From UHGV virus genome UHGV-0125682: a stretch of DNA of 64,000 nt. One strand, given 5' to 3'. Each line of letters starts with the position of its first letter. Within the stretch, counting starts at the first letter, position 1. The position numbers were made by a program, and so were the translations under genes. The stretch is from a virus. The notes below the pieces were generated by a model that was given only the letters and a program-made list of their open reading frames with translations, did no database searches and was not told the DNA's origin. Shown one piece after another: positions 8,352 through 60,495 of the stretch.

Positions 8352-8369
8352 AGTTAAATTTCTAACATA
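8352..8369 (+). promoter_or_regulatory. operator-like 17-bp repeat (TTTCTAACA core)
   Basis: aaatttctaacatag upstream of repL-like gene. Confidence 0.55.
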
Positions 8370-8457
8370 GTGTATTTATATACACTGTTGATCCTGGTGG
8401 ATGGGATCGAGTAGGATCGCGGTCACTGCTCCGGTAGCGACTGCCAAAAAAGCAAAA

Positions 8458-8478
8458 GCCGCTGAGAAGCGGCTTTTT
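8458..8478 (+). terminator. intrinsic terminator
   Basis: gccgctgagaagcggc hairpin plus TTTTT. Confidence 0.65.
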
Positions 8479-8540
8479 GGGTGTATAAATCCACTGCCAT
8501 AGATTTATACGGTAGATAGATTTTTTCACGGAACTATCTG

Positions 8541-9503
8541 GTGAGTATTTTAAATTCAGTTTCAGTAACTTTCAACACTTCTGAGTATAAAAACAACACT
8601 GAATACCACAAAAAAATCAAAGGTCATCAGTTGAGTTTTTTTGCTCGTCATAGCGGTCTTCTTTCCCCTTCACATAGCGCCATTATTGCCGAGTTCGCCA
8701 ACCTGGCAGGGTCTACCGATGAATACATGATCCGTCGCTCATATGCTGATATGTCCGAGATTACAGGACGCAGTATTTCTACTGTGCGCCGGGCATTTGC
8801 TGAAGCGACGAAGTGCGGAATGCTTGTTAAGCAACATCAGGTAGCGAATAACAATGCCCAGGTGTGTAACGTATATCGGTTTACGACACAATTTCTCCAC
8901 TTCATTCATGTAGCAATGGAGATAGGGGGTAAGCAGGGCATCAAATTTGCCAACGCCACAAAACTGGTTAAGCAGTTGATTTCAAAGGTTCGTTATTTTT
9001 TTGAAACTGGGAACCCCCTGTTCAAATTGAACAAGTCCCCCCATGTTCAAAATGAACAGCCAATAGAAAATAAGAGTTACTCTATAGCCAAAAGAAGAGA
9101 AAGATCATGCGCGGTTCAGCCAAAGGCTTCACCAGCAGATAGTTCTCAAACGGATAACGGTGTACTGGATAAAAAACCAGTAATCAGGGAAGAACATACC
9201 AACCACTGCCTGGCGGCGGCAAAAGCGAGAGCTGCAAAGCGTCGTTCAGACGAGGGGCACGCAAAACGGCAGGCTCTGTATCGTACCGCTGAAAAGCTGG
9301 CAAAAAAATTTGCATGGATACGTAGTGCCGCTACCGCAGTGAATAAGCCTAAACAATCCAGTGCCCTGGATTTCTCAATGGATTATTCTGGCTCCCAGGG
9401 GTGTGCAACCATTGGTGAAGCCTTTGACCTGATGAAACAGCGTGGCTATCGGTCTGAATTTGACCGTGAGGATTGGTCAATCCCTGCGGGATTTAGGGGA
9501 TGA
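8541..9503 (+). CDS. repL: RepL-like replication initiator
   Basis: HTH-like segment MSEITGRSISTVRRAFAEATKCGML; operator upstream; adjacent to icd/ant module. Confidence 0.5.
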   Translation: MSILNSVSVTFNTSEYKNNTEYHKKIKGHQLSFFARHSGLLSPSHSAIIAEFANLAGSTDEYMIRRSYADMSEITGRSISTVRRAFAEATKCGMLVKQHQVANNNAQVCNVYRFTTQFLHFIHVAMEIGGKQGIKFANATKLVKQLISKVRYFFETGNPLFKLNKSPHVQNEQPIENKSYSIAKRRERSCAVQPKASPADSSQTDNGVLDKKPVIREEHTNHCLAAAKARAAKRRSDEGHAKRQALYRTAEKLAKKFAWIRSAATAVNKPKQSSALDFSMDYSGSQGCATIGEAFDLMKQRGYRSEFDREDWSIPAGFRG

Positions 9504-9556
9504 CCTGTGTGTCTACAAAACATCCCAATGATCGGAAAATGCTCGTTCGATGATTT

Positions 9557-9573
9557 GTGTTAGAAAATTAATT
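9557..9573 (-). promoter_or_regulatory. operator-like repeat
   Basis: tgtgttagaaaattaat, with a second partial copy gtttctaaa at 9578..9586. Confidence 0.55.
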
Positions 9574-9641
9574 TGCTGTTTCTAAATCGGAATGTATGAT
9601 CTGCATCATCGACTGAAGTCATCCATTGCTGAAATTTTTAG

Positions 9642-9670
9642 TTGATCTTCCATGTTTTCAGGCTTATATT
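9642..9670 (+). promoter_or_regulatory. sigma70-like promoter for immI-like module 1
   Basis: TTGATC, 17-nt spacer, TATATT, just downstream of operator. Confidence 0.45.
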
Positions 9671-9916
9671 CATGCCGTCGTAGCAAATTCTGCGACCGGG
9701 TTTGACAGCCTGAATACTTACGCGGACAACCGCACATTTCCGATATTGCGGTATTTTTGTGTCCGTAAAACCACGTTACGCCCGAATTATGGTGGGGCGT
9801 GATGGGGAGGCTTCGGCCTGCTGGTTTCGTAAGTGCCAGTCTGTCAACCCTGTCACGTCCTGCCACCTGTTTGACAGCGGGTCGCAGGTTGTTTATCAAC
9901 TTACGAGGCCGTAACT

Positions 9917-10141
9917 ATGGTTAATGCCAATCCTTGCTCACGCCCAGAATTCATCTGGCGTTTCCACTCCCTGCAAAAACACTGCGATCACTTCGCAATT
10001 GCCGCAACCGAAAAAGAAGCCCGTTCTCTGATCCCTGATCAGTATGGTGTTCTTACTGGTCGTTTCTCTACTTCCCCACAACCAAACACTAATCCCTGGT
10101 ATCGCAATATTACCAATCCCGGAATTGCGGAGGCACACTGA
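9917..10141 (+). CDS. Icd-like small protein (74 aa) preceding antirepressor
   Basis: Paralog of 50316..50531 (shared EFIWRF and CQKH motifs); stop/start overlap with ant-like gene. Confidence 0.5.
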   Translation: MVNANPCSRPEFIWRFHSLQKHCDHFAIAATEKEARSLIPDQYGVLTGRFSTSPQPNTNPWYRNITNPGIAEAH

Positions 10142-10848
10142 TGGAAATCTGCATTCTTGAAAAGCCATCAATGACCAGCATTGAGATCGCGGAGCTGGTG
10201 GGAAGTCGTCACTCTGATGTTAAACGCAGCATCGAAAGACTTGTTGCTAAAGGAGTTATCCAACATACGCCATTGGCTACAGTTGAGAATAATCAATCAC
10301 TTAGCCCTAATAAATACACAAAAGCCTATTTCTTCGAAGGCGAGCAAGGCAAGCGCGATAGTATTGTCGTCGTCGCGCAGCTCTCTCCCGAATTCACCGC
10401 CCGGCTGGTGGACCGCTGGCGCGAACTGGAAGAACAAGTACGCCAGCCGTTGACCGAAATAGAGATGATCGCCGCAATGGCTGCAAATGCAGTTCAGCAG
10501 CAAAAGCGGCTTCATGTTGTTGAGTCAAAGGTTAGTCAGGTGGTAGAAACCGTCGAGCAAATCAAGAAGGGCAACATGCCAGATGGTTACATTGGCTACC
10601 GCCAGCTGGCTGCGAAATGTGGACTGACCGAAGCCAAATGCCGCAACCTGGTTAATGCTTACCGGATTCCCACCGATACACATGAGTTTTTAACTCCAGA
10701 GGGGGTATTGTCGCGTCGTTCCATCGTGGCCTTATCTCCCTTCATGAATGCTTTTAACCGGATGATGTCGGAGGCTGAACACCGAGGAAAACGCTGGTAT
10801 CACCCCAAAATGGGGCAATTCCAGGTGATCGGTTGGGGAGGTGAGTGA
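10141..10848 (+). CDS. antirepressor-like protein (Rha/Ant-type)
   Basis: N-terminal MTSIEIAELVGSRHSDVKRSIERL signature; paralog of 50531..51472. Confidence 0.7.
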   Translation: MEICILEKPSMTSIEIAELVGSRHSDVKRSIERLVAKGVIQHTPLATVENNQSLSPNKYTKAYFFEGEQGKRDSIVVVAQLSPEFTARLVDRWRELEEQVRQPLTEIEMIAAMAANAVQQQKRLHVVESKVSQVVETVEQIKKGNMPDGYIGYRQLAAKCGLTEAKCRNLVNAYRIPTDTHEFLTPEGVLSRRSIVALSPFMNAFNRMMSEAEHRGKRWYHPKMGQFQVIGWGGE

Positions 10849-11045
10849 TGGACATCATGCAGGCGGTAAAAAAAATCAGGGAAGGACAGGCTGAAGTGTG
10901 CCGCCGTAAAGCATGGAGTGTTGGTGTATGGGCCTGGCCTGATAATTACTCTACTACCGGATGGTTTTGTATTAATGGACTCCAGATCCGGGAAGTTGAT
11001 TTATCGACGGCTGATATAGTCGGTAATGATTGGATCGTGACTTGA
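10845..11045 (+). CDS. small protein homologous to C-terminal domain of the second antirepressor
   Basis: VCRRKAWSVGVWAWP and DWIVT match the C-terminus of 50531..51472; ATGA overlap. Confidence 0.5.
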   Translation: MMDIMQAVKKIREGQAEVCRRKAWSVGVWAWPDNYSTTGWFCINGLQIREVDLSTADIVGNDWIVT

Positions 11046-11053
11046 AGCGTGAT

Positions 11054-11078
11054 GCCCCGGCCTGGCCGGGGCTTTTTT
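11054..11078 (+). terminator. intrinsic terminator
   Basis: gccccggcctggccggggc hairpin plus T6. Confidence 0.75.
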
Positions 11079-11563
11079 CATGCCTCATTAGTTGAGGTTG
11101 CTGCGTCTCCGACTGGTAACAGAGCGGTATTGCGTGGTTCGCCAGCAGGCCAGCGATAGCCAGACACTCTTGATGTTGGGAATGCACGAATATTAACCGC
11201 ATCCCCCTGGTTCCCACCCAGGACAAGCAGATCGCCATTGGCGCGGCGTCCGACAACGAAGCCTACGTGCCCACCGCCTACGCGGGTAAATACAACGATA
11301 CATCCGTATGCCGGTGTATCTAATTTCTCGCCCCAATCCAGATAGGATTTTGCCGACTCAAATCTTGTTGAGCGGATGCCTACACGTTCCAGCATTGCAC
11401 CGACAAATGCTGCGCACCACGGCGTTTCATCGTCTTTAATTCCGCCGCGCTTGATGTCGCGCCAGAACTGAACGATTTCAGGGTTGTGTTTAGCGCCTTT
11501 TATTTCAGTCAGGCCAATGTGCTTACGGGCTTCAATTAGCCAGCGAGGTTCAATGTTTGCCAT
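11078..11563 (-). CDS. NlpC/P60-CHAP-like peptidase family protein
   Basis: ETPWCAAFVG and GGHVGFVVG Cys/His segments typical of small phage cell-wall peptidases. Confidence 0.55.
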   Translation of the reverse strand: MANIEPRWLIEARKHIGLTEIKGAKHNPEIVQFWRDIKRGGIKDDETPWCAAFVGAMLERVGIRSTRFESAKSYLDWGEKLDTPAYGCIVVFTRVGGGHVGFVVGRRANGDLLVLGGNQGDAVNIRAFPTSRVSGYRWPAGEPRNTALLPVGDAATSTNEA

Positions 11564-19284: not shown

Positions 19285-19420
19285 AAATAACAGGTTGGGT
19301 AAATGCCATGCGATTTACCCTCCTTGTTGATTAAGGTCACTCTTTACTCTAAAAGCAAATCCGACCTGTTGCATATAGACCATCCTTGAGTAGTATCTCT
19401 CTTGTTTTACAAATCTAACG

Positions 19421-19915
19421 TTGTTGTTATTATTTCGCATATTTACTATCAATGGGTGTGTTAGAAAAATAGCGCGAAAGAGAAGGCGTCGCAGTGAATA
19501 TTCTGAAACATCCCCACATGCCGCAGCTCTTAGAGAACTGGAGAAAAACCCAGATCTAATCAAAAGGAACCATGAGCATTACGAGCAGGTTCGCGTCCTG
19601 GACTGGATGTATCGCAATATGCGTTATGTGTATGAGCATACTCACGCCACTCCAAACGGTGGCCTGCGAGGCATAAGGACGGCAATAAAAATGGTGGCAG
19701 AGGGCCAAAAGAAGGGATATCCCGATCTTTCTATAGACCTTGCTTGTGGGGGATACCACGGAATGCGCATTGAGATGAAACATGGGAGAAATCGCCTGAC
19801 TCCCGAACAACTCGTCTGGATGACTCGCCTCACAGAAGCCGGTTACTACTGCTTTGAGGCGCGCAGTGCCGCTGAAGCCATAAAAGCTATCACGGAGTAT
19901 GTTTGTCTTGATTAA
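19421..19915 (+). CDS. VRR-NUC domain nuclease (start uncertain)
   Basis: PNGG, GYPDL and GGYHGMRIEMK segments characteristic of VRR-NUC. Confidence 0.6.
   Translation: MLLLFRIFTINGCVRKIARKRRRRSEYSETSPHAAALRELEKNPDLIKRNHEHYEQVRVLDWMYRNMRYVYEHTHATPNGGLRGIRTAIKMVAEGQKKGYPDLSIDLACGGYHGMRIEMKHGRNRLTPEQLVWMTRLTEAGYYCFEARSAAEAIKAITEYVCLD
19456..19470 (-). promoter_or_regulatory. operator-like repeat
   Basis: gtgtgttagaaaaat. Confidence 0.5.
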
Positions 19916-20460: not shown

Positions 20461-20500
20461 TTTATTGCATCTTCCGATACCGTCATCAAACTAATAAAAT

Positions 20501-20518
20501 ATGTTAGAAAACTAATTT
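20501..20518 (-). promoter_or_regulatory. operator-like repeat
   Basis: atgttagaaaactaattt upstream of 20540 gene. Confidence 0.55.
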
Positions 20519-20539
20519 AACAAAGTAACGGGAACAGCA

Positions 20540-21748
20540 ATGAGTCAACACACTGATACTTCTAATCTGGAAATTATCTCGACAGCAATTGAAACGCTGC
20601 GCACACAAATCGCTCTTATACAGAAACGGAATCCGGGTGATGACCTGTCAAAGCGACTGCACGAGAGTGTCATTGCCACTACAGATAACCTGGTGGCGGA
20701 AATCAACAAGCTGCTTGATGATGGGGCAGTTGATTACAATAAGCTGGTGGATCAGTTTGAGGAATACCAACAAGCCGTTAATGATGGCTTGATCCGTTTT
20801 TCACAAGTCACAGGCGTATCAGCGACAGTTGAAAGCCTGGGTGATGCAGTTAATCAATTTGCCGCGAATATGCGTAATGAGATCGGCAATCTGGAAGCGC
20901 GTCTTGAACAGGCAAATACACTGCGTAAATCTGCCGAAGCCGATTTGAACCGTTACAAAAAAGACTATCCGCCCAGCCTGACAAAGCGGCTGGATGTTGC
21001 GGAGAAGGATAACCGCACGCTGAAAAGAGAGCGCCGGGAACTAAAAGAGCGTTTAACCAAGCTCAATCAGCAATGCATTGATTATCAAGGCGAAGGCGTC
21101 ACACTGCGTAAAAAGTTGGCTACAGCGCAGAGCATTATCGAAACATTAAAGCGAGAGTGCTCACAGCTTGGTCACGATCTGAACCGTGCTTGTGGCATGG
21201 GACAAAGACCAGAGACATTTCCACTTATGTATGACGGAAGGGATGCCATTGCCTACATCCATGAGTATCCGCACGGCCTGGTTGCGGAAACTGGGCAGCG
21301 TGGCGAAGCACTGCTGACGGCTAATTACCATCAACAAATCAGAACCAATCGCCTGTTAACGATGGATGTGATCCCATCGGTATGGGGAACGCCGCTTTAC
21401 TATCGCCTGCCGGGCTTCGAAAAGGACTGGAATACCGACATAGACGAATGTCTCGCAGATAAAATTATGGCGTACCTGGAGACGGATTTTCCGTGCTTAT
21501 ATCGCCGGATTATGGACTCTAAGGATGCGCCAATCGATGAATTAAAAATGCGTCCGGAGACGCTGGAGGCAATCAAGCAGACGGAGTTTGATACTGTATT
21601 CAGTGTGGCCTGCATTCCAAGCTGTTTCCATGAAAGCATTCCGTTCATGCAAGGAGATCGTCGTCAGGAAATCATTGACGCTTGCCGGGTATGGGCGAAC
21701 GAATGGGATAAGAATAATGGGGGTGTAGAAGATCTTTACGGGAAATAA
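20540..21748 (+). CDS. hypothetical protein, N-terminal coiled coil (402 aa)
   Basis: ORF with AGCAATG start context; operator upstream. Confidence 0.55.
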   Translation: MSQHTDTSNLEIISTAIETLRTQIALIQKRNPGDDLSKRLHESVIATTDNLVAEINKLLDDGAVDYNKLVDQFEEYQQAVNDGLIRFSQVTGVSATVESLGDAVNQFAANMRNEIGNLEARLEQANTLRKSAEADLNRYKKDYPPSLTKRLDVAEKDNRTLKRERRELKERLTKLNQQCIDYQGEGVTLRKKLATAQSIIETLKRECSQLGHDLNRACGMGQRPETFPLMYDGRDAIAYIHEYPHGLVAETGQRGEALLTANYHQQIRTNRLLTMDVIPSVWGTPLYYRLPGFEKDWNTDIDECLADKIMAYLETDFPCLYRRIMDSKDAPIDELKMRPETLEAIKQTEFDTVFSVACIPSCFHESIPFMQGDRRQEIIDACRVWANEWDKNNGGVEDLYGK

Positions 21749-21767
21749 TGTGTTAGAAATCTAAAAT
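21748..21767 (-). promoter_or_regulatory. operator-like repeat
   Basis: atgtgttagaaatctaaaat. Confidence 0.5.
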
Positions 21768-21904
21768 CACAATTCGAATGTATTGATTGTGAAGGTAACT
21801 TAACATAGAATTTTCCTTGCTGGTGGGCGGTACCCACGTTTCGCTTGCTGGGCTTGATAGTCACTTATTGGTTATTGTTCGCCCACCAGCATTTAACAAA
21901 TTAA

Positions 21905-21922
21905 AGTGTTAGAAAAGTATAG
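21905..21922 (-). promoter_or_regulatory. operator-like repeat
   Basis: agtgttagaaaagtatag. Confidence 0.5.
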
Positions 21923-22498
21923 TAACGCAAGAGCACGCTTTGGCACCGTGCAGGCCAAAGTTCAGCAGGTTTAGTGCGGAAAGTGGTTTCAGAGAGAGCA
22001 CTTTGCGGAGTAAACGACAATACATGTTGAGCCAAGGAAGGTCTTTTTAAGGTGTTTATTGATGATGGTCCGGCAGAGAGTAACGGTACATGCTGCATCT
22101 AATCATCAATGCACATCTTCAACATTAAGGAGGCATAGGGATTTTTGTGGCGGTTACCTTTTGCCCTGAGTCTCCTTAATGTTGCGGTAATGCACCTATG
22201 CGGATGTGGCCTTGCATTGTGTCTTGAAAGAATGGGGTAAGGCCGGGGATATCCCCAGGGGGAGGCACCCCCGCTGCAACGAACAGCCACAGACGGCAGT
22301 CGAGTGATGGAAACGTGCAAAGACTTTAAACCTCGTTACGGCTGGCGTGGCAAACGCGACAACCGAGACAGAGCGGTGACGGGCGGAGAGAGTGCCGCAT
22401 CAAGAAAGAAGCCGACTTGTGATCCCTTTCAGCGGGCATTTGAAAGTGAATCCAGCTCAGGCAGTCGGCTTCTTTCTTGTGTGAGATGTAGCGTATTT

Positions 22499-22522
22499 GC
22501 CCATCTTCGGGTGGGCTTTTTT
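22499..22522 (+). terminator. intrinsic terminator inside ORF-poor region
   Basis: gcccatcttcgggtgggc hairpin plus T6. Confidence 0.6.
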
Positions 22523-22982
22523 AGGGTTTTCGTCATGGTTAGCGACTTTGCGGCGGTTTATAAACTGACCATTAAAGTAAATGCAAACGATGATCTGATG
22601 ATGGTAGCGGCCTAAGAAGCCAGACGCCACGGGGTATGAGTCGTCCCCCGTCAAAAAATCGACCGCAGAGTGTCCCCGTCTGTGTATTAGGGAACGGGGA
22701 GGCATAACAGGCAAGGGCGCTGGTGTGATTAACCAGATGAATGAGAAGGGTCAGGTCTTTCTGGTCAGCGCCCTTACCTGTTACGTCCCTCCCGCGTAAC
22801 AGCCATTGATTAATGGCTTTCTGGGATAACATCCTACTACGGGTATATCCCGTCATGCTGAAGGCGCTAATCACGCTGGAAGCCAGGGTTGTGCATCCCC
22901 TGTTACCGAATTGCAGCCAGGGCGCGGTGCGCCGAAAAGCATACGGAGGTGGAAGCCCTCGCCGGAGACGTACCCGGCAAGT

Positions 22983-23059
22983 GATGGTGTAGCTCAGTAG
23001 GATAGAGCAGCAGCCTTCTAAGCTGTCGGTCGGTGGTTCGAATCCACCCACCATCGCCA
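22983..23059 (+). tRNA. tRNA-Arg (anticodon UCU)
   Basis: Manual cloverleaf fold: 7-bp acceptor GATGGTG/CACCATC, TTCGAAT T-loop, anticodon loop CTTCTAA, encoded CCA. Confidence 0.85.
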
Positions 23060-23061
23060 AT

Positions 23062-23137
23062 GCCGGTTTAGCTCAGTTGGTAGAGCGCCTGCCTTGTAAG
23101 CAGGATGTCAGCGGTTCGAGTCCGTTAACCGGCACCA
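23062..23137 (+). tRNA. tRNA-Thr (anticodon UGU)
   Basis: Manual fold: acceptor GCCGGTT/AACCGGC, anticodon loop CTTGTAA, T-arm AGCGG-TTCGAGT-CCGTT, CCA. Confidence 0.85.
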
Positions 23138-23146
23138 ACACAACAG

Positions 23147-23220
23147 GTAAGGGTATTTTGCGACGTCGGAGATCGCCGTGCTTGGCAGAGGGTTCGAATC
23201 CCTACGAAGTACCCTTACCG
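23147..23220 (+). ncRNA. tRNA-like element or tRNA pseudogene
   Basis: 10-bp terminal stem GGTAAGGGTA/TACCCTTACC enclosing AGGG-TTCGAAT-CCCT T-arm-like hairpin, but spacing is non-canonical. Confidence 0.3.
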
Positions 23221-23775
23221 TTGTGATGAAGTGCAGCTCTTTGAAGCAACCAGAAGATAAGCATCTGGCTTCACAACATAAACCGCAGGAACGACCAATA
23301 AACGGTAGTCCGTATGGAGAACACCCCGTTGAGGAAGAGGCCTGGCCGGAACCGTAACCGGCACTACAACGTTGAGAACACTGGCGTAACGGGGTCATAT
23401 CCCAATCTATGAATAAATGTTGCGTTGCAGCGTGACAACCAGTGTTCTCAACATTGTGGTGAATGCGCAGGCTGATGCGCGAAAGACATTGCAGCTATTG
23501 CGGAAAAGAGCTGTTCGGCGGGGCAATTAAACGCCCGTGAGAGTCTGAAATAACCGCAAGCCGGAGATCAGCACCGGTCGCCACAATAACGGGAGAGTAG
23601 GGAGCATGGTGCTCAAGCAGTCTTGAAAACCGTCCCATTGCGCACGCGGAACAGTTAAAACAATCCTCCTTAGTGGTTAAGTCAAACATCCCGGCGTTAA
23701 TTGTTAACTGGTTAACGTCACCTGGAGGCACCAGGCACCGCAGCTTTTTTATTCGTTAAATAATGGAGTGAGAGG

Positions 23776-24012
23776 ATGCAGAACAATCCGAACAAATGTC
23801 GAACGCTATGGGTGCGGTTATATATTTATGTCGTCCTCTGTTTGATTGTGTCACTGGTTCTGTATGTTTGGCTTTTGCCAAATATGATCTCATCTGACAG
23901 CACAATACTTGTATTGTTGGGAGTCCTTCTCGCGCTCATTTACCCGGCTTTTGCAGTAGTCTTTTTTCGTGAAAAAACCAGGAAATTGATTAATGAAAAA
24001 AACGTTGATTAG
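23776..24012 (+). CDS. small membrane protein (78 aa)
   Basis: GAGAGG RBS; two hydrophobic helices. Confidence 0.5.
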   Translation: MQNNPNKCRTLWVRLYIYVVLCLIVSLVLYVWLLPNMISSDSTILVLLGVLLALIYPAFAVVFFREKTRKLINEKNVD

Positions 24013-24820
24013 TGCAGCGATTATTTTTGGTTCTTTATGTCTGACCGGATGCGACCGGGTAGAACCAGGCAATGTAGGGATCAAAGTAAATAAGCTGGGG
24101 GATGATAAAGGTGTCGGCGAAGTAGTTGGCGTTGGTCGCTACTGGACAGGCTGGAACACAGAAGTTTATATCTTCCCGACCTTTAAGCAAATGAAGACCT
24201 ATGATGATCCGTTCAGCTTCCAAATGAGCGACGGGACAACAATTGGTTACCACATTGGTGTAGCTTACAAGGTTGATCCGGCAAAAGTCACAACTGTATT
24301 TCAGACCTACCGCAAAGGCGTGGATGACATTACCGACACCGACCTGCGCCAGAAGATTGCCGACGCACTTAACCGACTGGCCAGCAAAATGACCACCGAC
24401 AAATTTATCGACGGTGGCAAGTCTGAACTACTGGATGCAGCTCTTAAAGACATCCAGGAAGAAATGACGCCCATCGGTATTCAGGTAATGAGCCTCTCAT
24501 ATGTGGGCAAGCCGGAGTACCCGCCAACCGTTATCGACAGCATTAATGCCAAAGTCACGGCGAACCAGAAAACTCTGCAACGCGAGCAGGAAGTCAAGCA
24601 ACGCGAAGCAGAAGCCAACATGCTGCGCGCAGAAGCTGCCGGACAGGCCGATGCCATTCGCACAAAAGCCCAGGCTGAAGCTGATGCCATTCGTTTACGC
24701 GGTGAGGCTCTGCGCCAGAACCCCGGCGTTATGGAGTTGGAAGCGATCAACAAATGGAACGGAACGCGACCGCAGTATATGACCAGTAATACCGCTGTTC
24801 CGTTTGTTCCGGTGAAATAA
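23993..24820 (+). CDS. plp: SPFH/band-7 domain lipoprotein (Plp-like)
   Basis: Signal peptide with lipobox LCLTGC; coiled-coil Ala/Glu-rich C-terminus typical of SPFH proteins. Confidence 0.65.
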   Translation: MKKTLISAAIIFGSLCLTGCDRVEPGNVGIKVNKLGDDKGVGEVVGVGRYWTGWNTEVYIFPTFKQMKTYDDPFSFQMSDGTTIGYHIGVAYKVDPAKVTTVFQTYRKGVDDITDTDLRQKIADALNRLASKMTTDKFIDGGKSELLDAALKDIQEEMTPIGIQVMSLSYVGKPEYPPTVIDSINAKVTANQKTLQREQEVKQREAEANMLRAEAAGQADAIRTKAQAEADAIRLRGEALRQNPGVMELEAINKWNGTRPQYMTSNTAVPFVPVK

Positions 24821-24974: not shown

Positions 24975-25050
24975 GGCCCTTTAGCTCAGTGGTTAGAGCT
25001 GGCGACTCATAATCGCACGGTCACCGGTTCAAGTCCGGTAGGGGCCACCA
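24975..25050 (+). tRNA. tRNA-Met or tRNA-Ile2 (anticodon CAU)
   Basis: Manual fold: acceptor GGCCCTT/AGGGGCC, anticodon loop CTCATAA, T-arm ACCGG-TTCAAGT-CCGGT, CCA. Confidence 0.8.
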
Positions 25051-26079: not shown

Positions 26080-26471
26080 TGTACGAGACCACAAAATTAA
26101 GCATTCACGAAGTATCCAATGTGGAGTGGAATATCGTCACCTGTAAGATTGTATCGTGTAATGCTGCGCGTACTGATGCAGGCCATAAGAGCACGATAAC
26201 AGGCTACATGGTAATGGCTTATAGGGGATTGAGAGTTCGCTTTATCTGGAAAGCTCGGCAATTGACACCATTCAGAGAGCCGTCAATGCCATTAGAGGTA
26301 GAACAGGATTATTTAAGCCTGCCGGAAATAGACGGTGCAACGCTGGTGGATTCTGATGGTCGTAAGGCTGATTTTGAAGTCAGCTTAAAGGTGGCGCAGG
26401 CCGTAATTAATAACTCACGTGGTAAGTGGATCGCTAAGGTAAAACACGGCGTTCGCTTATCTCGCTGGTAG
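26079..26471 (+). CDS. hypothetical protein (130 aa)
   Basis: ATGA start/stop overlap with upstream gene. Confidence 0.5.
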   Translation: MYETTKLSIHEVSNVEWNIVTCKIVSCNAARTDAGHKSTITGYMVMAYRGLRVRFIWKARQLTPFREPSMPLEVEQDYLSLPEIDGATLVDSDGRKADFEVSLKVAQAVINNSRGKWIAKVKHGVRLSRW

Positions 26472-26485
26472 TGTTAGATGAATGG

Positions 26486-26505
26486 AATTAATTTTCTAAT
26501 ATAAC
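26486..26505 (+). promoter_or_regulatory. operator-like repeat (variant TTTTCTAAT) with inverted half-copy at 26471..26480
   Basis: gtgttagatg ... aattaattttctaatataac. Confidence 0.45.
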
Positions 26506-26579
26506 CAACTTTTTGCCAGTCTATACAGAAATAACATTCTCATTATCATCCCCTCGGTCATTTCCTGCCTGGGGGATTA

Positions 26580-26972
26580 ATGGAGCATATCAGCAGCGCA
26601 GAAATTGCGGATATCATGATTAGGGCTGACTGCTATCTGACAGTCACCGAAATCACCACTCTAGCTAAAGAAAAATATCCTCACCTTCATGTTTCACGCG
26701 TAAGTGTAACCAACATCATTCGGCATTTTGTGCGGTCAAGCCGAGCTATTTGTGAGCTTGATGATCGTGTTTACCCACGGAAATACTGGTTGCATGGCCT
26801 GAACGGATATCAGTTCAAGGTGCGCGGGCGCACGCCTGAATACGGTAGCTTACTGGTTAAAAACTGTAGCAGGAAATCAGTCGAACAGGCGCGAAAAGAG
26901 CAACGAGAGCTGGTGGACATGGCGAATAAGCTGTGGAATGCCGCCGTTAAAAAGCGTGGTGTTGCTTTATGA
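26580..26972 (+). CDS. hypothetical protein, possible late-gene activator (Lpa position upstream of pacA)
   Basis: Position only; stop overlaps pacA start. Confidence 0.35.
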   Translation: MEHISSAEIADIMIRADCYLTVTEITTLAKEKYPHLHVSRVSVTNIIRHFVRSSRAICELDDRVYPRKYWLHGLNGYQFKVRGRTPEYGSLLVKNCSRKSVEQARKEQRELVDMANKLWNAAVKKRGVAL

Positions 26973-29869: not shown

Positions 29870-30907
29870 TTACCAGAGCTTCGCGGCGTACTGCGTTTGG
29901 GGGAATGTGTATCCGTAACGTTCTTCGATTGCTTTGCCGTATTTTTTACGAGCTTCATTCAGTTTAATGCCGGTCAGGTCGTCTCCAGAGGCCATCATTA
30001 CGTCTAACAATTCCAGATCCATTTTATCCAACCTTGCCATTGCTTCACGTGATGTACGTATCTTACGCTCAATGATATGGCGAATAGCCGGATCGGCATC
30101 CTCCAGCATCTTAGCGGATTTCTGCTTAAGGCTTTCATTGCGAATATCGATGTTCCTTAAGATGTACGACTTCGCAACGTAGCTTGGCTGGTGTTTTTCC
30201 AGGTCACGAACACGATATAAGTTAAAATCGCCGAGAAGGCTGCATGGTACCGATTCGACGCCAGAATAAATTGTAATGCTCCGGCGTTCACCAACATTAT
30301 TGACAACGGGGATCGTTGTCTTCGGTAGTCTTGCGAAAACCAATGCGCCATGTGCGCCAACTCTAAAGCGAGAAAGGGCATTGCTGCCTTCGATGTTTGT
30401 TGTCAGCACAACATCTGTATATGCCTCTTTACGCGCCCGGTAGATCTCGCCTTCAGGCTCAGCTTCAAAGAAGCGCTGTTCTTCTTCAAGAGCACCTACG
30501 ATTTGAGAAAAAACCCTATTTTTCAGGCTTTTCTTTATGATTTTGTCGTATTTTTTTAGCAATTGTTCACGTGTAAATGTACGTGTTGTTGTAGCGCTTT
30601 GCACAACGACATGCGTGCTTTGATTGGTGTCCTCAATGATGAATGGGATCGGAGAATATACAGACTCAACAATGTTCGACGCTTTGCCGTCGGCATCGCG
30701 GCACATGTCAACGAAGGCTTTCCATTCAGCAAGACATTTTTCAGCTTCTTCTAATATGTTTTGGTCATGCGTTAATGCAACATGGCGGAATTCCTCGCCA
30801 GCATAACTGGTATCATGGAAAACAGAGTTTGCGACCACCAGCTCTTTCCACCGTTCAGCGGTTTGCAGGAACCGTTTGTACTCTTTCTCGATCGACTTCT
30901 TACTCAT
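29870..30907 (-). CDS. hypothetical protein in the P1 c1-equivalent position (candidate immunity repressor)
   Basis: Only gene between pacB and the rox-like site; operator copy 14 bp upstream of its start. Confidence 0.4.
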   Translation of the reverse strand: MSKKSIEKEYKRFLQTAERWKELVVANSVFHDTSYAGEEFRHVALTHDQNILEEAEKCLAEWKAFVDMCRDADGKASNIVESVYSPIPFIIEDTNQSTHVVVQSATTTRTFTREQLLKKYDKIIKKSLKNRVFSQIVGALEEEQRFFEAEPEGEIYRARKEAYTDVVLTTNIEGSNALSRFRVGAHGALVFARLPKTTIPVVNNVGERRSITIYSGVESVPCSLLGDFNLYRVRDLEKHQPSYVAKSYILRNIDIRNESLKQKSAKMLEDADPAIRHIIERKIRTSREAMARLDKMDLELLDVMMASGDDLTGIKLNEARKKYGKAIEERYGYTFPQTQYAAKLW

Positions 30908-30920
30908 TATTCCTACTCGA

Positions 30921-30940
30921 TTTAGTTTTCTAACATAAAA
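30921..30940 (+). promoter_or_regulatory. operator-like repeat
   Basis: tttagttttctaacataaaa. Confidence 0.55.
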
Positions 30941-31106
30941 TTACTATGACAAATTTATGTCGAATAACAGGGTGAGTAAAGGATCGAACTGTGATTTTTT
31001 GTCATCAATTTTAGAAAACCAACCGTAGAAACCACACTTCGCAAATTAAAGACCATGAAGGCAACGTGTTACTGGTCATCATCAATCTATGATGGATTAA
31101 AAAAAA

Positions 31107-31138
31107 TCGGCATTTTATAACTTTAAATAATTGGCATT
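31107..31138. other. rox: rox/lox-type recombination site (14-bp arms, 4-bp spacer)
   Basis: TAACTTTAAATAAT-TGGC-ATTATTTAAAGTTA, perfect inverted arms, 164 bp upstream of cre-like gene. Confidence 0.8.
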
Positions 31139-31153
31139 ATTTAAAGTTAGGCT

Positions 31154-31301: not shown

Positions 31302-32330
31302 ATGGGCGAATTAATTATCTCTGGCAGTTCCGGTGGTTTTCTGCGCAACATTGGCAAAGAGTACCAGGAAGCCGCAGAAAACTTTATGCGGTTCATGAAT
31401 GACCAGGGAGCTTATGCGCCGAATACTCTGCGCGACCTCCGTTTGGTGTTTCATTCCTGGGCGCGCTGGTGTCACGCTCGCCAGCTTGCCTGGTTTCCGA
31501 TCTCACCAGAAATGGCCCGCGAGTATTTTCTTCAGCTGCATGATGCCGATCTGGCTTCGACCACCATTGATAAGCACTACGCCATGCTGAACATGCTGCT
31601 TTCGCATTGTGGCCTTCCACCACTTTCGGATGATAAAAGTGTTTCTCTGGCTATGCGGCGCATCCGGCGCGAAGCGGCAACTGAAAAAGGCGAACGAACA
31701 GGCCAGGCTATACCGCTGCGGTGGGACGATCTGAAACTGCTCGACGTCCTGTTGTCCAGGTCTGAACGGCTGGTGGCCCTGCGCAACCGGGCTTTTCTCT
31801 TTGTTGCATACAATACGCTGATGCGTATGTCGGAAATCTCGCGTATTCGTGTAGGAGATCTGGACCAAACAGGTGACACTGTCACGCTACATATTTCACA
31901 CACGAAGACAATAACGACCGCCGCCGGGCTTGATAAGGTGCTTTCCCGTCGCACTACCGCTGTGCTGAATGACTGGCTGGATGTTTCCGGGCTTCGCGAA
32001 CATCCTGACGCAGTGCTGTTCCCGCCGATACACCGTAGCAATAAGGCCAGGATCACGATAACGCCCCTTACTGCACCTGCAATGGAGAAAATATTCAGCG
32101 ACGCCTGGGTGTTGCTGAATAAAGGAGATGCTACGCCAAACAAAGGAAGATACCGGACGTGGACCGGGCATAGTGCACGCGTCGGGGCCGCTATCGATAT
32201 GGCTGAAAAGCAGGTCTCTATGGTGGAGATTATGCAGGAAGGAACCTGGAAGAAACCGGAAACACTTATGCGGTATCTGCGCCGTGGCGGCGTGTCTGTG
32301 GGGGCTAATAGCCGCCTGATGGATTTATAA
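31302..32330 (+). CDS. Cre/Dre-like tyrosine site-specific recombinase
   Basis: Alignable with Cre along its length (WFPxxPE, MRRIRRE, AFLxxAYNTLxRxxEIxRIRVxD, SGHSARVGAAxDMA, catalytic Tyr region MRYLR). Confidence 0.9.
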   Translation: MGELIISGSSGGFLRNIGKEYQEAAENFMRFMNDQGAYAPNTLRDLRLVFHSWARWCHARQLAWFPISPEMAREYFLQLHDADLASTTIDKHYAMLNMLLSHCGLPPLSDDKSVSLAMRRIRREAATEKGERTGQAIPLRWDDLKLLDVLLSRSERLVALRNRAFLFVAYNTLMRMSEISRIRVGDLDQTGDTVTLHISHTKTITTAAGLDKVLSRRTTAVLNDWLDVSGLREHPDAVLFPPIHRSNKARITITPLTAPAMEKIFSDAWVLLNKGDATPNKGRYRTWTGHSARVGAAIDMAEKQVSMVEIMQEGTWKKPETLMRYLRRGGVSVGANSRLMDL

Positions 32331-32349
32331 ATTAAATTTCTAACACATC
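32331..32349 (+). promoter_or_regulatory. operator-like repeat
   Basis: attaaatttctaacacatc upstream of 32404 operon. Confidence 0.55.
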
Positions 32350-43578: not shown

Positions 43579-43618
43579 AATGTATACCGACTCTGTTTTG
43601 TTCCGAGCGGTAAAATAA

Positions 43619-43656
43619 TATGTTAGAAAACTAAAATCAATGTTCTAACACATTTT
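43619..43656. promoter_or_regulatory. tandem divergent operator-like repeats
   Basis: atgttagaaaactaaaat and aatgttctaacacatttt, upstream of the leftward operon starting at 43578. Confidence 0.55.
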
Positions 43657-48656: not shown

Positions 48657-48845
48657 AATTTCCCCAGCATCGTGACGAAAAACATCAGCACGGCAAAAAG
48701 CTCAATACCTAATTCAAGTAGCGCCAACGCCCCGAAAAAAAACACATAGAACAGGCCAATCTCATTCACAGATGGCTGGTGGATCGCACTTAAAGCTATA
48801 AGCATCATGTCCTCCAAACATTTATCAGTGATGATATTAATGTTT

Positions 48846-48865
48846 TGTGTTAGAAAATCAATTTT
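48846..48865 (-). promoter_or_regulatory. operator-like repeat
   Basis: tgtgttagaaaatcaatttt upstream of ref-like gene. Confidence 0.55.
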
Positions 48866-48925
48866 GAATATCTAACTGCTTTGATCAATCATAGAAAAAT
48901 CGCTGAAAAGTAAGAGGCAGCCATC

Positions 48926-49504
48926 ATGCAGAAACAGAGCTATTGGGAGAAACAGAGACAAAAAGCCATGCAAAAATTGGCTGACCCAGCCTGGCGAGAG
49001 GAACAAAGGGCAAAGCGCCTTCAACAAGCTCAACGCCAGCAGCAGCGAGCGAGAGAAAAAGCCGCATCGCCTGAATATCGGCAAAAGAAAATTGAAAAAG
49101 CAAAGCAATATGAACAGCGGAGAAAAGATAAAGCTGTATCCGCTCCGTCCAAAAAAACACGCACGTCACGCGGCCTGAAAGGCAGATCACTCACAGCCGA
49201 TGAACGCCGGATACAGACCGCTATCGGTGCTCTCCCCTGCATTGCCTGCCATATTCACGGGCAACATAGCCCAGTGGTATCCCTGCACCATATCTTCGGG
49301 AGAACGGCAGAGAACGCGCATAAATATGTCCTCCCTTTGTGTAAATGGCACCACCAGTACGCAGCGCCAGCCGAGGTCAGAGAACAATATCCCTGGCTGG
49401 TCCCTGTTCATGCTGACGGAAAAATAGGCGGAAAAGCAGATTTCATGCGGCACAATGCCGATGAAATGACGTTGTATCAGATGGCGATTGAGTTGATAAA
49501 TTAG
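48926..49504 (+). CDS. ref: Ref-like HNH endonuclease
   Basis: Basic Lys/Arg/Gln-rich N-terminal 80 aa then His/Cys cluster (CIACHIHGQHS, HHIFGR, CKWHH); operator upstream. Confidence 0.6.
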   Translation: MQKQSYWEKQRQKAMQKLADPAWREEQRAKRLQQAQRQQQRAREKAASPEYRQKKIEKAKQYEQRRKDKAVSAPSKKTRTSRGLKGRSLTADERRIQTAIGALPCIACHIHGQHSPVVSLHHIFGRTAENAHKYVLPLCKWHHQYAAPAEVREQYPWLVPVHADGKIGGKADFMRHNADEMTLYQMAIELIN

Positions 49505-49518
49505 TTTTCTAACATTTT
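49499..49518 (+). promoter_or_regulatory. operator-like repeat
   Basis: attagttttctaacatttt. Confidence 0.5.
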
Positions 49519-50003: not shown

Positions 50004-50315
50004 AACACTGACTGTTGCGCCCTGGCATTATCGTGGGGTATATTTCTACGGCACCTTAGAAAAACGGGTGCCGGGATTGGAACCCCGGATAATGCAAAAG
50101 GCGACACAGACGCCGAAAGCGTCTTTTTTTGTGTCATGCCATCGCACAGCCATACGTAGCGTTTAGCTCAGAGATCAATGGTAGTGCTGGCTGGGCTGCC
50201 GAAAGGCAGGCCGGTTCCCTTTTGCGCCGGTAGTTCCAACCCAGTCAGTGCTACCGCCATTGAGATTGGAACCTCACGCGGTAGCTCCTTAAATTAGCAA
50301 AAGGAGGCTGCCAAT

Positions 50316-52876: not shown

Positions 52877-53092
52877 GTAAACAAAATGAAGTTTTATGTT
52901 ACAAAAACAATCAACTACATCAACATGATTTAGGCCAAATTTCGGTCAAAAAATAAAATCCACAAAAAGTGGTTGACACTATTTTGGAAATCACAAACTG
53001 CACATAATCCATCGCGCTAACGGCTCCCGTTGAAGGTTCTTTTGACGATTAACTTTCAGCCGAAGCGCGGTAGGGAGTCATAACGCCAAAGC

Positions 53093-54126: not shown

Positions 54127-54456
54127 ATGGGCTATAGCAGACTCGACGATAGGTACATTGAAGACGATATTTTTCGTGCGCTGTTTCACCAGGAAATGAT
54201 TAAGCGGGTATCGGAGTATCACTCTGATAATTTCCAGTACACGATAAAGATTGATGAAGTATATCGTTCAGACCTTGCAGCCTACAGGGCGTATGGCAAT
54301 GCAGATTTGCGCTGGGTATTCCGGGTGCTGGTGGGCCATGAGTCAGAAATGGAAGAAATGCCCGCCGGGACCACGTTAACTCTTCCTGATGTGGCATGGC
54401 TGAGGAACAAGATCCGTGATTACGCGAGCGCGGAACCGGAGATAGAAAATGCCTGA
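54127..54456 (+). CDS. hypothetical protein
   Basis: ORF, overlaps next gene. Confidence 0.5.
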   Translation: MGYSRLDDRYIEDDIFRALFHQEMIKRVSEYHSDNFQYTIKIDEVYRSDLAAYRAYGNADLRWVFRVLVGHESEMEEMPAGTTLTLPDVAWLRNKIRDYASAEPEIENA

Positions 54457-57253: not shown

Positions 57254-58045
57254 ATGGGCCGTTTTGACGAATGGTTTTCTGACGATGCAAACCTGGCAAG
57301 TAAGGAGTCAGAACATGACAGCACGCAGAGAGAAACGCCAGCGCCGATTGAAGCGAATGCAGGAGGCGCGCCGGAACATGGCAATACCAGTTCGGATTCA
57401 TTCAGCATTCTGGAAGAGCAACCCGCCGCCAAAGCTGATAGCCATGATAATTTTGCTGATAGCAACGGTGGCCTTACTCCAGATGCTGGCGAATCAGATA
57501 TAGCCATACTTCCACCTTCCCTGGCTGGCAGAGAACCAACTCCACAGCTAAAAGCACGCTATAACGGGCATAAAGCCTTTAACGACCAAATCCGCGCAGA
57601 CTGGATGCTGATTATTGAATCCAGCCCAGACGCGTTTCAGGCTCTCTTATATCGACCAGATGTTGGCACATATGGGGTAGTCAGCGACGAAACAGGAGAA
57701 GAGTCATTCACTGAACTGGATAACAACCAGCGCGAACTGACTTACCAGGAACCTGAAATCGTTTATGTGCTGGATAACCCGGACGGGCGTGACTCTTTCC
57801 ATGCGATTGACGCAGACGGTGAGCAGGATGGCTTAACCGATGATGTTCTGATTCTGCGTATTGCAGCAAATAACGTCCCCGTCGGCTCAATTCTTGAATG
57901 GAATGAAGAGATGGTAAACGGCGTAGCCCGCCGCTGGTGGTACGTGCACCGTATTTTTAGCTACGGCACACAGCATGTTGGTTCGCTTTACTACTGCATA
58001 CCAGCCAGGAATTTTGATACGACTCAAAACGGAGTGATCGAATGA
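57254..58045 (+). CDS. hypothetical acidic protein (possible tail/baseplate module)
   Basis: Start reassigned to MGRFDEWF with GAGGA RBS. Confidence 0.45.
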   Translation: MGRFDEWFSDDANLASKESEHDSTQRETPAPIEANAGGAPEHGNTSSDSFSILEEQPAAKADSHDNFADSNGGLTPDAGESDIAILPPSLAGREPTPQLKARYNGHKAFNDQIRADWMLIIESSPDAFQALLYRPDVGTYGVVSDETGEESFTELDNNQRELTYQEPEIVYVLDNPDGRDSFHAIDADGEQDGLTDDVLILRIAANNVPVGSILEWNEEMVNGVARRWWYVHRIFSYGTQHVGSLYYCIPARNFDTTQNGVIE

Positions 58046-58809
58046 CTTCAAATAAAACCCTCCTGGCGCGAACAGGTGAATGGCAAACCTCACGCACAGG
58101 AAAATTCCAGACCACGGGCTTTGAAAACGTGGATAACGCGTTTGCGACGCTAATCAGCAACATTTTTTCTGATATCTTACTGGTGGCCCCCGCGCCGGAA
58201 GAAAAACGCTTTGCGTCATTCTTGAATCGTCCACCAGCAGAGCGTGTCTATGTGGCCCGTTTCGACAATGCGATCGAGTTTCTTAAAGCGGTTCGTCGCG
58301 CAAATGCCGGGCAAGGGAGAAAACCTGAAAACCAGAACATTAACCGGGATGCTCTCCCCCTGGTCAATATCTCACGCACTATGGATATCAATTATATCAA
58401 CGATGATCAGCAGATTGACCGCAAAAAAGTAGCCAGTTTTTGCGAACCGGATACCGGAATGCCTTTAGCAGAACTGGAATACACCCAGGCCATTCTGACG
58501 TATGACGTTACGTTAATGGCAACTGATAAAGCGACCATGAGTCTGATGTGTAATTCGCTGGGCGCACGGCTTCGCCTGATGACAGGTACACAATTTGAAG
58601 CAACCACTCACCTTGTTCGTGTTCCGGTCCCGCTGATTTGCTCGATACAGGATGCCAAAGAAGTCGGCTTTACGGATGTTTCAGCACCAATTGGAGAAGA
58701 GCGTATTTATGCCACACAAGCGCCGATAAGTGTGATTGCAGACGTGATCACAGCATGGGAGTTGGACGCAAAACGTATTATTACCGAAACCTCGATATCT
58801 ATGGGGTGA
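58042..58809 (+). CDS. hypothetical protein (possible baseplate)
   Basis: Overlapping operon. Confidence 0.45.
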   Translation: MTSNKTLLARTGEWQTSRTGKFQTTGFENVDNAFATLISNIFSDILLVAPAPEEKRFASFLNRPPAERVYVARFDNAIEFLKAVRRANAGQGRKPENQNINRDALPLVNISRTMDINYINDDQQIDRKKVASFCEPDTGMPLAELEYTQAILTYDVTLMATDKATMSLMCNSLGARLRLMTGTQFEATTHLVRVPVPLICSIQDAKEVGFTDVSAPIGEERIYATQAPISVIADVITAWELDAKRIITETSISMG

Positions 58810-58812
58810 TAA

Positions 58813-59793
58813 GTGGCCCAGGAGTTACAACAATATTTTCTACAGTCAGTGCTCATTAACGATAACAAAGTGCCACGAGACTGGATTTTTACCGCAGTAT
58901 ATGTAGAAAAAACCAGCCTCAAAGCCCCTTTGCTAAAACTGGAAATTCATGACGCTACCGGCACCGTAATTGATGACTGGAAAGCCAAATACGGTGCATC
59001 GCTGGTGGCTGAAATGGGCGATCCAAACGGTAATGCAGGCACTTTTAAAACAGATTTCTTTGTTACGTCTGCAATGCTGGCTGGTGATGTTGTTACCGTT
59101 ATTGCTGTCAGTGAAGACGTGCGCAGGTTTAAGCTCCCCTCCCCGCGCACAAATTTACATACCAACAAAACACCAGACGCTATATTCAAGGCATATTCCG
59201 GCAAGCTTAAAATTACCAGCAGCGTGCTAAAACGCGCAGTTACATATCATCTGAATGCCGGTGACAAACCGTCAAAAATGCTTTCGGAGATAGCGCGAGA
59301 CAAAGGTGCATTATGTTGGGTATGCCGGGGGGAATTTAACTTTTACACCCTGGATGATCTGATGAAGCAAACGCCATCATTTACCTACGAGGGGAATAAC
59401 CCTAAAGCAGAATACACTTTGTCCAAAATGCGCCTACTCCAACAGGAACATGCGACAACAGCAAAGAATCAATATCGTTTTGTTGGGTATTCCATGACCG
59501 ATGGCTACGTCGAATATGGCGATAGCTCACTCCCAGTGCGTTATATATCCGACTCTGATATGGAAACTCTTCGCAATATGCAGCTGTCTCTCGTCCCCAA
59601 AATGGATATAGAAGTCGCAGGCAATCCTGATATAAAACCGGGGATGGTGATAGAGATTATCGTATACCGCTATGACCAGGAAAACCGCATTGATGAATCA
59701 ATGCCCCGTAAGCTGATAGTAAAAAATGTTGCGCACTTTGAAGACCGCGTAGGCTACACAACACGAATGATATTGGGAGTGCCGAACAAATGA
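58813..59793 (+). CDS. hypothetical protein (possible baseplate hub)
   Basis: Precedes spike-like gene. Confidence 0.45.
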   Translation: MAQELQQYFLQSVLINDNKVPRDWIFTAVYVEKTSLKAPLLKLEIHDATGTVIDDWKAKYGASLVAEMGDPNGNAGTFKTDFFVTSAMLAGDVVTVIAVSEDVRRFKLPSPRTNLHTNKTPDAIFKAYSGKLKITSSVLKRAVTYHLNAGDKPSKMLSEIARDKGALCWVCRGEFNFYTLDDLMKQTPSFTYEGNNPKAEYTLSKMRLLQQEHATTAKNQYRFVGYSMTDGYVEYGDSSLPVRYISDSDMETLRNMQLSLVPKMDIEVAGNPDIKPGMVIEIIVYRYDQENRIDESMPRKLIVKNVAHFEDRVGYTTRMILGVPNK

Positions 59794-60443
59794 AGCGTAG
59801 AGCGCAAATTGTTGGAACTGTGCACCCGGCAGGGCTTATGCGTGCTCAAGTCCGTGTTTTACCTGACTGGAATGGCGTTCCTGATGACGATCTACCCTGG
59901 GCGGAATACCTGTTACCCATCGGAAACGCTTTTGTACCCACAGTCAAAGGTGACCTGGTCTGGGTAGAGTTTCCTTATTTAGATGTTAACGGTCGAATAG
60001 ACACCAGACGCCCAATGATAGTTGGTGCCGCTCAGGATGCACCGGGAGGAATTCCAAACGTTGCACCAGAAGCATCTGGCAAAGGCAACGGCTGGACGCC
60101 GCCGGAAGTAGATGGAGCACCTCCCCGCCCCCAAATCTCAGCAACGAAAGACTTCGTTATTCACCGCAACAATATTCTTGAAGTACGAACTGCTGGTGGC
60201 GGCTATGAAATTGCCAATACGGCAGCAGGCTCAAGGATTGGCATGAATGAGTCCGGGCAGATATATATCATTGGTCCGGCTGATGTAATCGTGAATGCAG
60301 GAGGGAGTGTTAACGTCAAATCAGCCAACAACATCAATGTTAATGGGGAAAATATAGCTGTCACCGCTAACGGGGACATAGCTTTCAAGGCTGGGGGAAC
60401 CTTTCAGGCCACTGCTGGCAACTTCGATTTCAAGAAAGGATAG
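59790..60443 (+). CDS. baseplate central spike-like protein
   Basis: N-terminal OB-fold-like segment (VRVLPDWNG...GDLVWVEF) then Gly/Asn-rich beta-helix repeats. Confidence 0.5.
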   Translation: MKRRAQIVGTVHPAGLMRAQVRVLPDWNGVPDDDLPWAEYLLPIGNAFVPTVKGDLVWVEFPYLDVNGRIDTRRPMIVGAAQDAPGGIPNVAPEASGKGNGWTPPEVDGAPPRPQISATKDFVIHRNNILEVRTAGGGYEIANTAAGSRIGMNESGQIYIIGPADVIVNAGGSVNVKSANNINVNGENIAVTANGDIAFKAGGTFQATAGNFDFKKG

Positions 60444-60457
60444 AAAATGCACCCATT

Positions 60458-60495
60458 TGTGTTAGATAATTAATATGTATTTTCTAACATAAATG
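60458..60495. promoter_or_regulatory. pair of operator-like repeats
   Basis: tgtgttagataattaat and gtattttctaacataaatg upstream of rdgC-dmt. Confidence 0.55.

Follow-up and report, generated by a model that had tools for sequence, protein, structure and literature searches.

The DNA analysed here is a stretch of 64,000 nucleotides from the virus genome UHGV-0125682, referred to below as the window. It corresponds, in reverse complement, to about 64 kb of a phage closely related to Escherichia phage D6, is 97.7–99% identical to D6 (MF356679, AY753669) over most of its length and covers approximately 70% of a D6-size genome. D6, which has an identical C1 protein, and D6-like plasmid prophages such as pYU39_89 are P1-like plasmid prophages. 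The genes of the window include repL, two immI-type antisense modules, lpa, ref and rdgC, together with a gene for a C1-type prophage repressor, c1. The first-pass annotation listed at least 15 copies of a dispersed, asymmetric 17-bp motif, mostly intergenic and in front of operons, and pointed to the product of 29870–30907 as their candidate repressor. All 15 copies were present, spread over 52 kb, and from sequence comparison we consider it highly probable that the motif, AAATTArTTTTCTAACAyA, is the operator of this C1-type repressor.

The C1 of the window was indeed a C1 homologue, 100% identical to D6 C1. BLASTP against P1 C1 gave 21% identity over 240 aa (E 2e-8), and both proteins fell in phrog_1678 (E 2.8e-170 and 2.6e-140). 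The NCBIfam model phage_rep_C1 scored the window protein at 25 bits against a cut-off of 500, so it is no equivalog, and the precomputed assignment of PF27008 (Phage_P7_repressor_C1) covered C1 relatives at 44–99% identity (P0001–P0010). The window repressor is also larger than P1 C1 (345 aa versus 283 aa), and about 100 of its C-terminal residues had no alignment to the P1 protein. Members of this repressor family were detected by tblastn on 149 PLSDB plasmids.

The motif was strongly over-represented in the window. The 19-mer of the first-pass annotation, at up to three mismatches, had 9 matches versus 0.01 expected; the core TTTCTAACA occurred exactly in 12 copies versus 0.57 expected, and the consensus AATTARTTTTCTAACAYA, at up to three mismatches, had 13 matches versus 0.21 expected. 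A position weight matrix (PWM) was seeded with the 12 exact cores and iterated until convergence, and its scan of the whole window ended on exactly the 15 listed sites. With the 21-bp matrix used for scoring, these sites scored 17.8–31.7, clearly separated from the next matches (13.0, 10.5 and 8.9), which fell in the range of first-order Markov shuffles (mean of 0.86 matches scoring 12 or more, mean maximum 12.8). Once Chi-related words were set aside, TGTTAGAAA was the commonest 9-mer of the window. The information was spread over about 19 bp, and not over 17 bp as first given. TCTAA and the A two bases 3′ of it were invariant across the sites, the TTT 5′ and the C 3′ of TCTAA were nearly invariant, and the 5′ tail AAATTA was weaker. 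An equal frequency inside coding DNA had been named beforehand as the finding that would speak against an operator family; instead, the centres of 13–14 of the 15 sites were non-coding in a window of which only 7–17% is non-coding, depending on the open reading frame (ORF) cut-off (binomial P 5.6e-14 to 1.5e-10).

The P1 immC system is the textbook case of such an arrangement. P1 C1 has 22 dispersed asymmetric 17-bp operators with the published consensus ATTGCTCTAATAAATTT (PMC8546580), and the consensus that we rebuilt from the annotation of GenBank AF234173, which lists 20 C1 operators, was the same. No site matching this P1/P7 operator sequence was found in the window at up to three mismatches, and the D6 motif had no match in the P1 genome. 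The claim that the motif differs from the P1 operator therefore stands as far as the sequence is concerned, although the two are not unrelated: when they are anchored on CTAA, T-CTAA is common to both and the flanks differ, the tail lying 5′ of the core in the window motif and 3′ of the core in P1.

The distribution of the sites, in contrast, mirrored the P1 C1 regulon nearly site for site, as had been claimed. When the D6 annotation and the Pfam and Rfam assignments were compared with the operators of P1 AF234173, window sites lay at the places of annotated P1 C1 operators at about ten loci. The units common to both were repL, c4-icd-ant, lpa, c1, ref, the ref stop codon, hrdC-dmt, pmg and the tRNA operon. 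As in P1/P7, where the set comprises Op2a,b, Op21, Op51, Op53, Op55, Op68, Op72a,b, Op82, Op83, Op86a,b, Op88, Op94 and Op99a-e, a homologous repressor is accompanied by many single non-palindromic sites over a plasmid prophage of about 90 kb. Two regions differed in number: the c1 region has one strong and one decayed site here and five operators in P1, and there are two c4/immI modules here and one in P1. A lambda-type CI/Cro system resembles the present one in having a prophage maintenance repressor with autoregulation, which is proposed here. However, in lambdoid phages the operators are palindromes grouped at two sites next to the repressor gene, whereas the sites described here are asymmetric and genome-wide.

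The first-pass annotation had also noted pairs at two loci, tandem or divergent. The pairs were present (43618/43633 and 60457/60472), and both were more precisely overlapping divergent sites, the first on the minus and the second on the plus strand, at a fixed 15-bp offset, so that the cores read TTAG...CTAA, 22 bp apart. Together with two pairs in which one partner has decayed (half-sites 26469 and 48860), the window holds two strong and two decayed pairs with this constant offset. The same geometry was found in D6, four times in the relative L007 and twice in the relative L008. The lpa pair is a full bivalent operator in L007 (24412-/24427+), and the ref pair is one in both L007 (87-/102+) and L008 (5935-/5950+). 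Both P1 and the window/D6 double some sites into such overlapping 'bivalent' operators. In the P1 bivalents (Obanab, Oc1ab) the sites converge (CTAA...TTAG), the cores being 12 bp apart and the offset 11 bp, and the pair geometry is the clearest architectural difference from P1. The constancy of the offset points to a defined protein–protein geometry.

We compared repressors and motifs across relatives. Where C1 was 70–100% identical (D6, L007, L008) the full motif was kept, and L007 (C1 80%) and L008 (C1 70%) each had 13–14 matrix matches in 41 kb, at orthologous positions. The core TTTTCTAACA persisted at unchanged places in relatives with C1 at 44–90% identity; in L012 (C1 51%) and L013 (C1 44%) it was kept and the 5′ tail was altered, for example to AAATCTATTTTTCTAACAC. 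In these two Logan contigs the tail AAATTAG was replaced by AAATCTA or by other sequences, and such tails could distinguish additional immunity groups among the D6-like elements. A third clade, with C1 at about 30% identity (Leclercia L010, Citrobacter L011), yielded the motif TTCTAAGGCTT in a blind intergenic motif search. It occupied the same positions, upstream of c1, ref and rdgC and directly past the recombinase, pmgS and pro stop codons. Another candidate for the operator of this distant clade, GTGATCAC, was rejected, as it had few copies, several of them clustered in the pacA region; the P1 pac site is rich in TGATCA. TCTAA was common to all three repressor clades, and T-CTAA was shared by all clades, P1 included.

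The c1-proximal site was conserved in every relative examined. In an alignment of the region upstream of c1 from four relatives (A2) the site formed a conserved island, as did the site upstream of lpa (A4). Three clades thus carry three motifs at constant positions, always with a c1-proximal site, and this is the main argument for C1 as the binder. A D6-like remnant was also detected on an unrelated conjugative IncFIB resistance plasmid of S. Typhi, pK91 (L009, NZ_CP029871, 18556–21038). It consists of dre, c1 at 68% identity, dut and phd/doc, with the c1-proximal operator intact, and might confer immunity to D6-like phages.

Table 1. Probable operators and related features of the window. Sites are given as 21-mers and scores are those of the 21-bp PWM.
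Feature	Position	Strand	Score or basis	Location and genes	P1 counterpart
c1, C1-type prophage repressor of 345 aa, proposed binder of the motif	29870..30907	-	homology		
Operator TAAGTTAAATTTCTAACATAG	8350..8370	+	25.5	170 bp upstream of repL, 9 bp past pro stop codon; orthologue D6 22464-22484	OrepL (Op53)
Operator	9555..9575	-	31.7	upstream of first immI module (c4-a1b1 targets, C4 RNA, icd, Rha-type antirepressor)	Oc4 (Op51)
Operator, weakest of the 15	19456..19476	-	17.8	5′ end of VRR-NUC/pmgM gene	O26 (Op82), itself upstream of pmgL-pmgM
Operator	20499..20519	-	31.2	20 bp upstream of pmgS; kept in D6, L007, L008	OpmgRa/b (Op86)
Operator, first of tandem pair	21748..21768	-	26.8	adjoining pmgS stop codon; pair upstream of tRNA/tci operon	pair comparable to Obanab (Op72)
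Operator, second of tandem pair	21904..21924	-	20.5	as above; identical in D6 8909-8929	as above
Operator	26484..26504	+	25.6	75 bp upstream of lpa (late-promoter activator), then pacA, pacB	Olpa (Op94)
Decayed partner half-site CATCTAACAC	26469..26489	-	7.8 (background 99th percentile -9.7)		
Operator	30918..30938	+	27.9	10 bp upstream of c1 start codon	Oc1ab (Op99a,b)
Operator	32328..32348	+	30.2	over dre recombinase stop codon, 55 bp upstream of orf117-dut-isaA operon	no clear equivalent
Bivalent operator	43618..43653 (43618-43638, 43633-43653)	-, +	28.4, 24.7	between ppp (metallophosphoesterase) and DUF968/pdcB-like gene, leftward early operon	no clear equivalent
Operator	48845..48865	-	27.9	60 bp upstream of ref, divergent region with leftward early operon	Oref (Op2a)
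Decayed partner half-site ATATCTAACTG	48860..48880	+	3.8	bivalent offset from ref operator	
Operator	49497..49517	+	28.7	over ref stop codon, upstream of second immI module (isrK, C4 RNA, icd, antirepressor)	exactly as Omat (Op2b); P1 ref 2077-2637, Omat 2628-2645
Bivalent operator	60457..60492 (60457-60477, 60472-60492)	-, +	27.1, 23.1	10 bp upstream of rdgC(hrdC)-methyltransferase genes	Odmt (Op68)
Possible weak site TTGATTGTTTTTGTAACATAA, not counted as member	52894..52914	-	8.9	upstream of simB-like gene; D6 orthologue GATTATTTTTATAACATA at D6 72196-72213	
Conserved TTTTCTAA(A) island	31011..31018	-	only 3.8	invariant in four relatives (A2)	

The sites of the window are listed in Table 1. 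D6 had orthologous operator sites throughout, a few of them with one or two substitutions, such as the repL site (AGTTAAATTTCTAACATA in the window, AATTAAATTGCTAACATA in D6); neither of the two D6 GenBank records annotates operators. Beyond the window, at D6 54200–54220 (9200–9220 in L003), D6 has another strong D6-type site, AATTTTGGTTTTCTAACACAA (score 25.1), 13 bp upstream of orf52 in a region divergent from the major capsid gene. The first immI site stands about 109 bp from c4-a1b1, the equivalent distance in P1 being about 115 bp. Rfam placed c4-a1b1 at 9664–9716 and C4 at 9785–9870 in the first module and isrK at 50051–50129 and C4 at 50174–50261 in the second. Both antisense modules (9664–9870, c4-a1b1 and C4 RNA; 50051–50261, isrK and C4 RNA) precede an icd gene and a gene for a Rha/KilA-type antirepressor.

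A strong promoter-like site (TTTACA-16-TATTAT with TG, 19406–19433) lies just upstream of the 19456 operator. The longest ORF of the adjoining VRR-NUC/pmgM gene starts with TTG and its real start is uncertain, the VRR_NUC domain occupying aa 45–150. In the third clade a site was found directly past the pmgS stop codon as well (L011 26215). At lpa (26580–26972, Pfam BPP1_LPA) a promoter-like site lies at 26522–26549. In alignment A4 the TCTAA of the lpa operator was invariant, and the decayed partner, placed at the exact bivalent offset, had a GTTAG invariant in six relatives. The ref gene (48926–49504) carries the Pfam domain RecA_dep_nuc, and rdgC (60503–61408) the Pfam domain RdgC; a promoter-like TAGAAA-18-GATAAT at 60441–60470 overlaps the rdgC pair.

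The 30918 site sits between a conserved TTTACT-17-TAAATT (30980–30952) and the ribosome-binding site of c1, and we propose it as a candidate site of c1 autoregulation. The island at 31011–31018, about 30 bp upstream of the putative −35 hexamer of c1, may be an auxiliary or decayed operator. A rox site is located at 31118–31149. Same-place counterparts of the 32328 operator were found in L007, L008, L009, L012 and L013, and in the third clade at L011 18374 and L010 8081. The 43618/43633 pair was the same in D6, L007 and L008.

In the mechanism that we propose, C1 made from the plasmid prophage would bind each asymmetric site, probably as one protein per site, and the overlapping divergent pairs would be occupied by two C1 proteins. 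Binding would shut off early promoters scattered over the genome. Besides c1 itself, repression would extend to the lytic replication gene repL, both c4-icd-ant antirepressor modules, lpa and the packaging genes that accompany it, ref and rdgC-dmt, the units of pmgM and pmgS, the tRNA operon and a pair of early operons made up of small genes. That C1 is the binder is inferred, as are the stoichiometry and the direction of regulation, by analogy with P1. Since neither the repressor nor the site matches P1, we would expect this element to be heteroimmune to P1 as well as P7 and homoimmune to D6.

The conservation of positions has to be weighed against other ways of explaining the motif. A different phage regulator, such as an early Cro-like protein, the Rha-type antirepressor or an unrecognised small protein, could bind the sites while C1 reads something else. 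The clade-level co-variation is also what any regulator diverging along with the backbone would show, and the AlphaFold model of C1 (pLDDT 79) gave no informative match and no recognisable DNA-binding fold in PDB comparisons. However, the sites occupy the positions of annotated P1 C1 operators at about ten loci, one of them lies 10 bp from the c1 start in all relatives, including the c1-dre-dut remnant of L009, and the 9-mer census showed no other comparably repeated motif except Chi. We therefore regard another regulator as improbable. The resemblance of TAACAT and TTAGAA to −10 and −35 hexamers, and the weak promoter-like combinations that overlap many sites, could suggest instead that the motif is a promoter element for RNA polymerase, either a −10-like TAACAT or an Lpa box. 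Yet the motif is found in either orientation upstream of same-strand genes, which is impossible for a promoter element, and its invariant 11-bp core exceeds any sigma-70 element. P1 late promoters carry another box, AAGTGACTT at −22, unrelated to the motif, and the genes served are early and immunity genes, including lpa itself, and not late structural operons. The mixed orientation, the different P1 box and the class of genes led us to reject the Lpa-box or late-promoter reading, and a promoter element of any kind appears very unlikely. The Lpa box ACAAGTGACTT, at up to two mismatches, occurred in the window at chance level (13 matches versus 15.9 expected).

Sites of a host nucleoid protein (IHF, Fis, H-NS) are often AT-rich and intergenic, as is the motif, which could alternatively be a non-functional dispersed repeat. 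Against this, the core is invariant over 11 bp and differs between phage clades that live in the same hosts, the sites are conserved islands in otherwise diverging intergenic DNA, the pairs have a fixed geometry, and the motif is absent from P1; across the family there was also no match to the IHF consensus. Such an origin is scarcely credible.

Several observations nevertheless weigh against C1 repression at these sites or limit how it should be understood. The co-variation is not specific to C1, as other regulators, for example Lpa, diverge by clade too. A scan with the sigma-70 consensus found fewer promoter-like sites in the window than in shuffles, with no enrichment, and only some of the operators overlap a convincing promoter. 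As to individual sites, the 19456 site is within the first 56 nt of the longest VRR-NUC/pmgM ORF, over 1 kb separates the 21748 and 21904 sites from the first tRNA, and a distance of about 550 bp separates the 49497 site from the second immI module. The orientation of the motif relative to the downstream gene varies, and only at about five loci is it the same as in P1; its use as a guide to homology was dropped. The asymmetry originally described holds for the information content, which is strongly one-sided (the core plus the weaker 5′ tail), but the motif also contains a weak internal dyad, TTAr-N4-CTAA, so that strict asymmetry and binding as a monomer remain assumptions. Finally, the circuit of the window is no copy of that of P1. 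Searches with tblastn (E ≤ 0.01) for Coi, Lxc, ImcA and ImcB of P1 detected none of them in the window (about 70% of a D6-size genome), and there were no homologues of KilA, Ant1, Ssb or Ban in it either. With no Coi or Lxc homologue in the window, the modulation of C1 must differ. Lxc has been reported absent from the D6-like plasmid pYU39_89 (PMC6799933).

The shared T-CTAA suggests how C1 specificity may have evolved. A fixed T-CTAA core may be read by one module throughout the C1 family, with the flanks setting the immunity specificity; these are TGC..T.A.TTT in P1, AAATTA....CA.A in the D6 group and ..GG.TT in the third clade. The D6 lineage may in addition have re-engineered cooperative binding by means of divergent pairs. 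This binding could use the C-terminal extension of about 100 aa that is absent from P1 C1, and it could replace the Coi and Lxc modulators not found in the window. Taken jointly, the common core module and the re-engineered cooperativity form a proposal that we hold to be rather doubtful. If true, it would offer a tractable natural series for studying how the specificity of a monomeric repressor with a structurally uncharacterised fold evolves while the wiring is fixed.

The operator of C1, which we keep as the preferred reading, would be of practical use. D6-like plasmid prophages occur commonly in E. coli, Salmonella and Shigella, and a known operator would allow immunity groups to be predicted, in other words which phage-plasmids shut each other out and which tolerate each other. 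With it, early operons could also be annotated and orthogonal repressor/operator pairs built beside P1 C1. The three-clade comparison indicates that the repressor and some 15–20 dispersed sites change together while their genomic positions stay fixed. Once a repressor has diverged, divergence of its sites is to be expected; P1 already exemplifies this kind of system, and the result is incremental rather than surprising. A full-text literature search for the motif or for D6 operators returned nothing relevant, the D6 genome paper being outside its coverage, and there is a real chance that operators of D6 specificity are already in print.

The window differs from D6 at 22496–24820, where a P1-like segment stands in place of the D6 tRNA region. 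Here the sequence matches P1/RCS47 (plp, upl, tRNAs) at about 93% identity, and not D6, and the D6-type operators at 21748 and 21904 are therefore now upstream of a P1-derived tRNA segment. The window tRNAs (22983–23137 and 24975–25050) are Arg(TCT), Thr(TGT) and Met/Ile2(CAT), all on the plus strand, whereas D6 has Asn, Thr and Ser(TGA). ARAGORN placed the tRNAs of D6 MF356679 (6084–7850) on the minus strand, co-oriented with tciA/B, although the table of that record lists them on the plus strand, and it detected an unannotated tRNA-Met(CAT) at D6 6084–6159. The Chi octamer GCTGGTGG was present in 46 copies in the window (29 on the plus and 17 on the minus strand) versus about 1.6 expected from base composition, and Chi-related words also headed the k-mer lists of the distant relatives L010 and L011.

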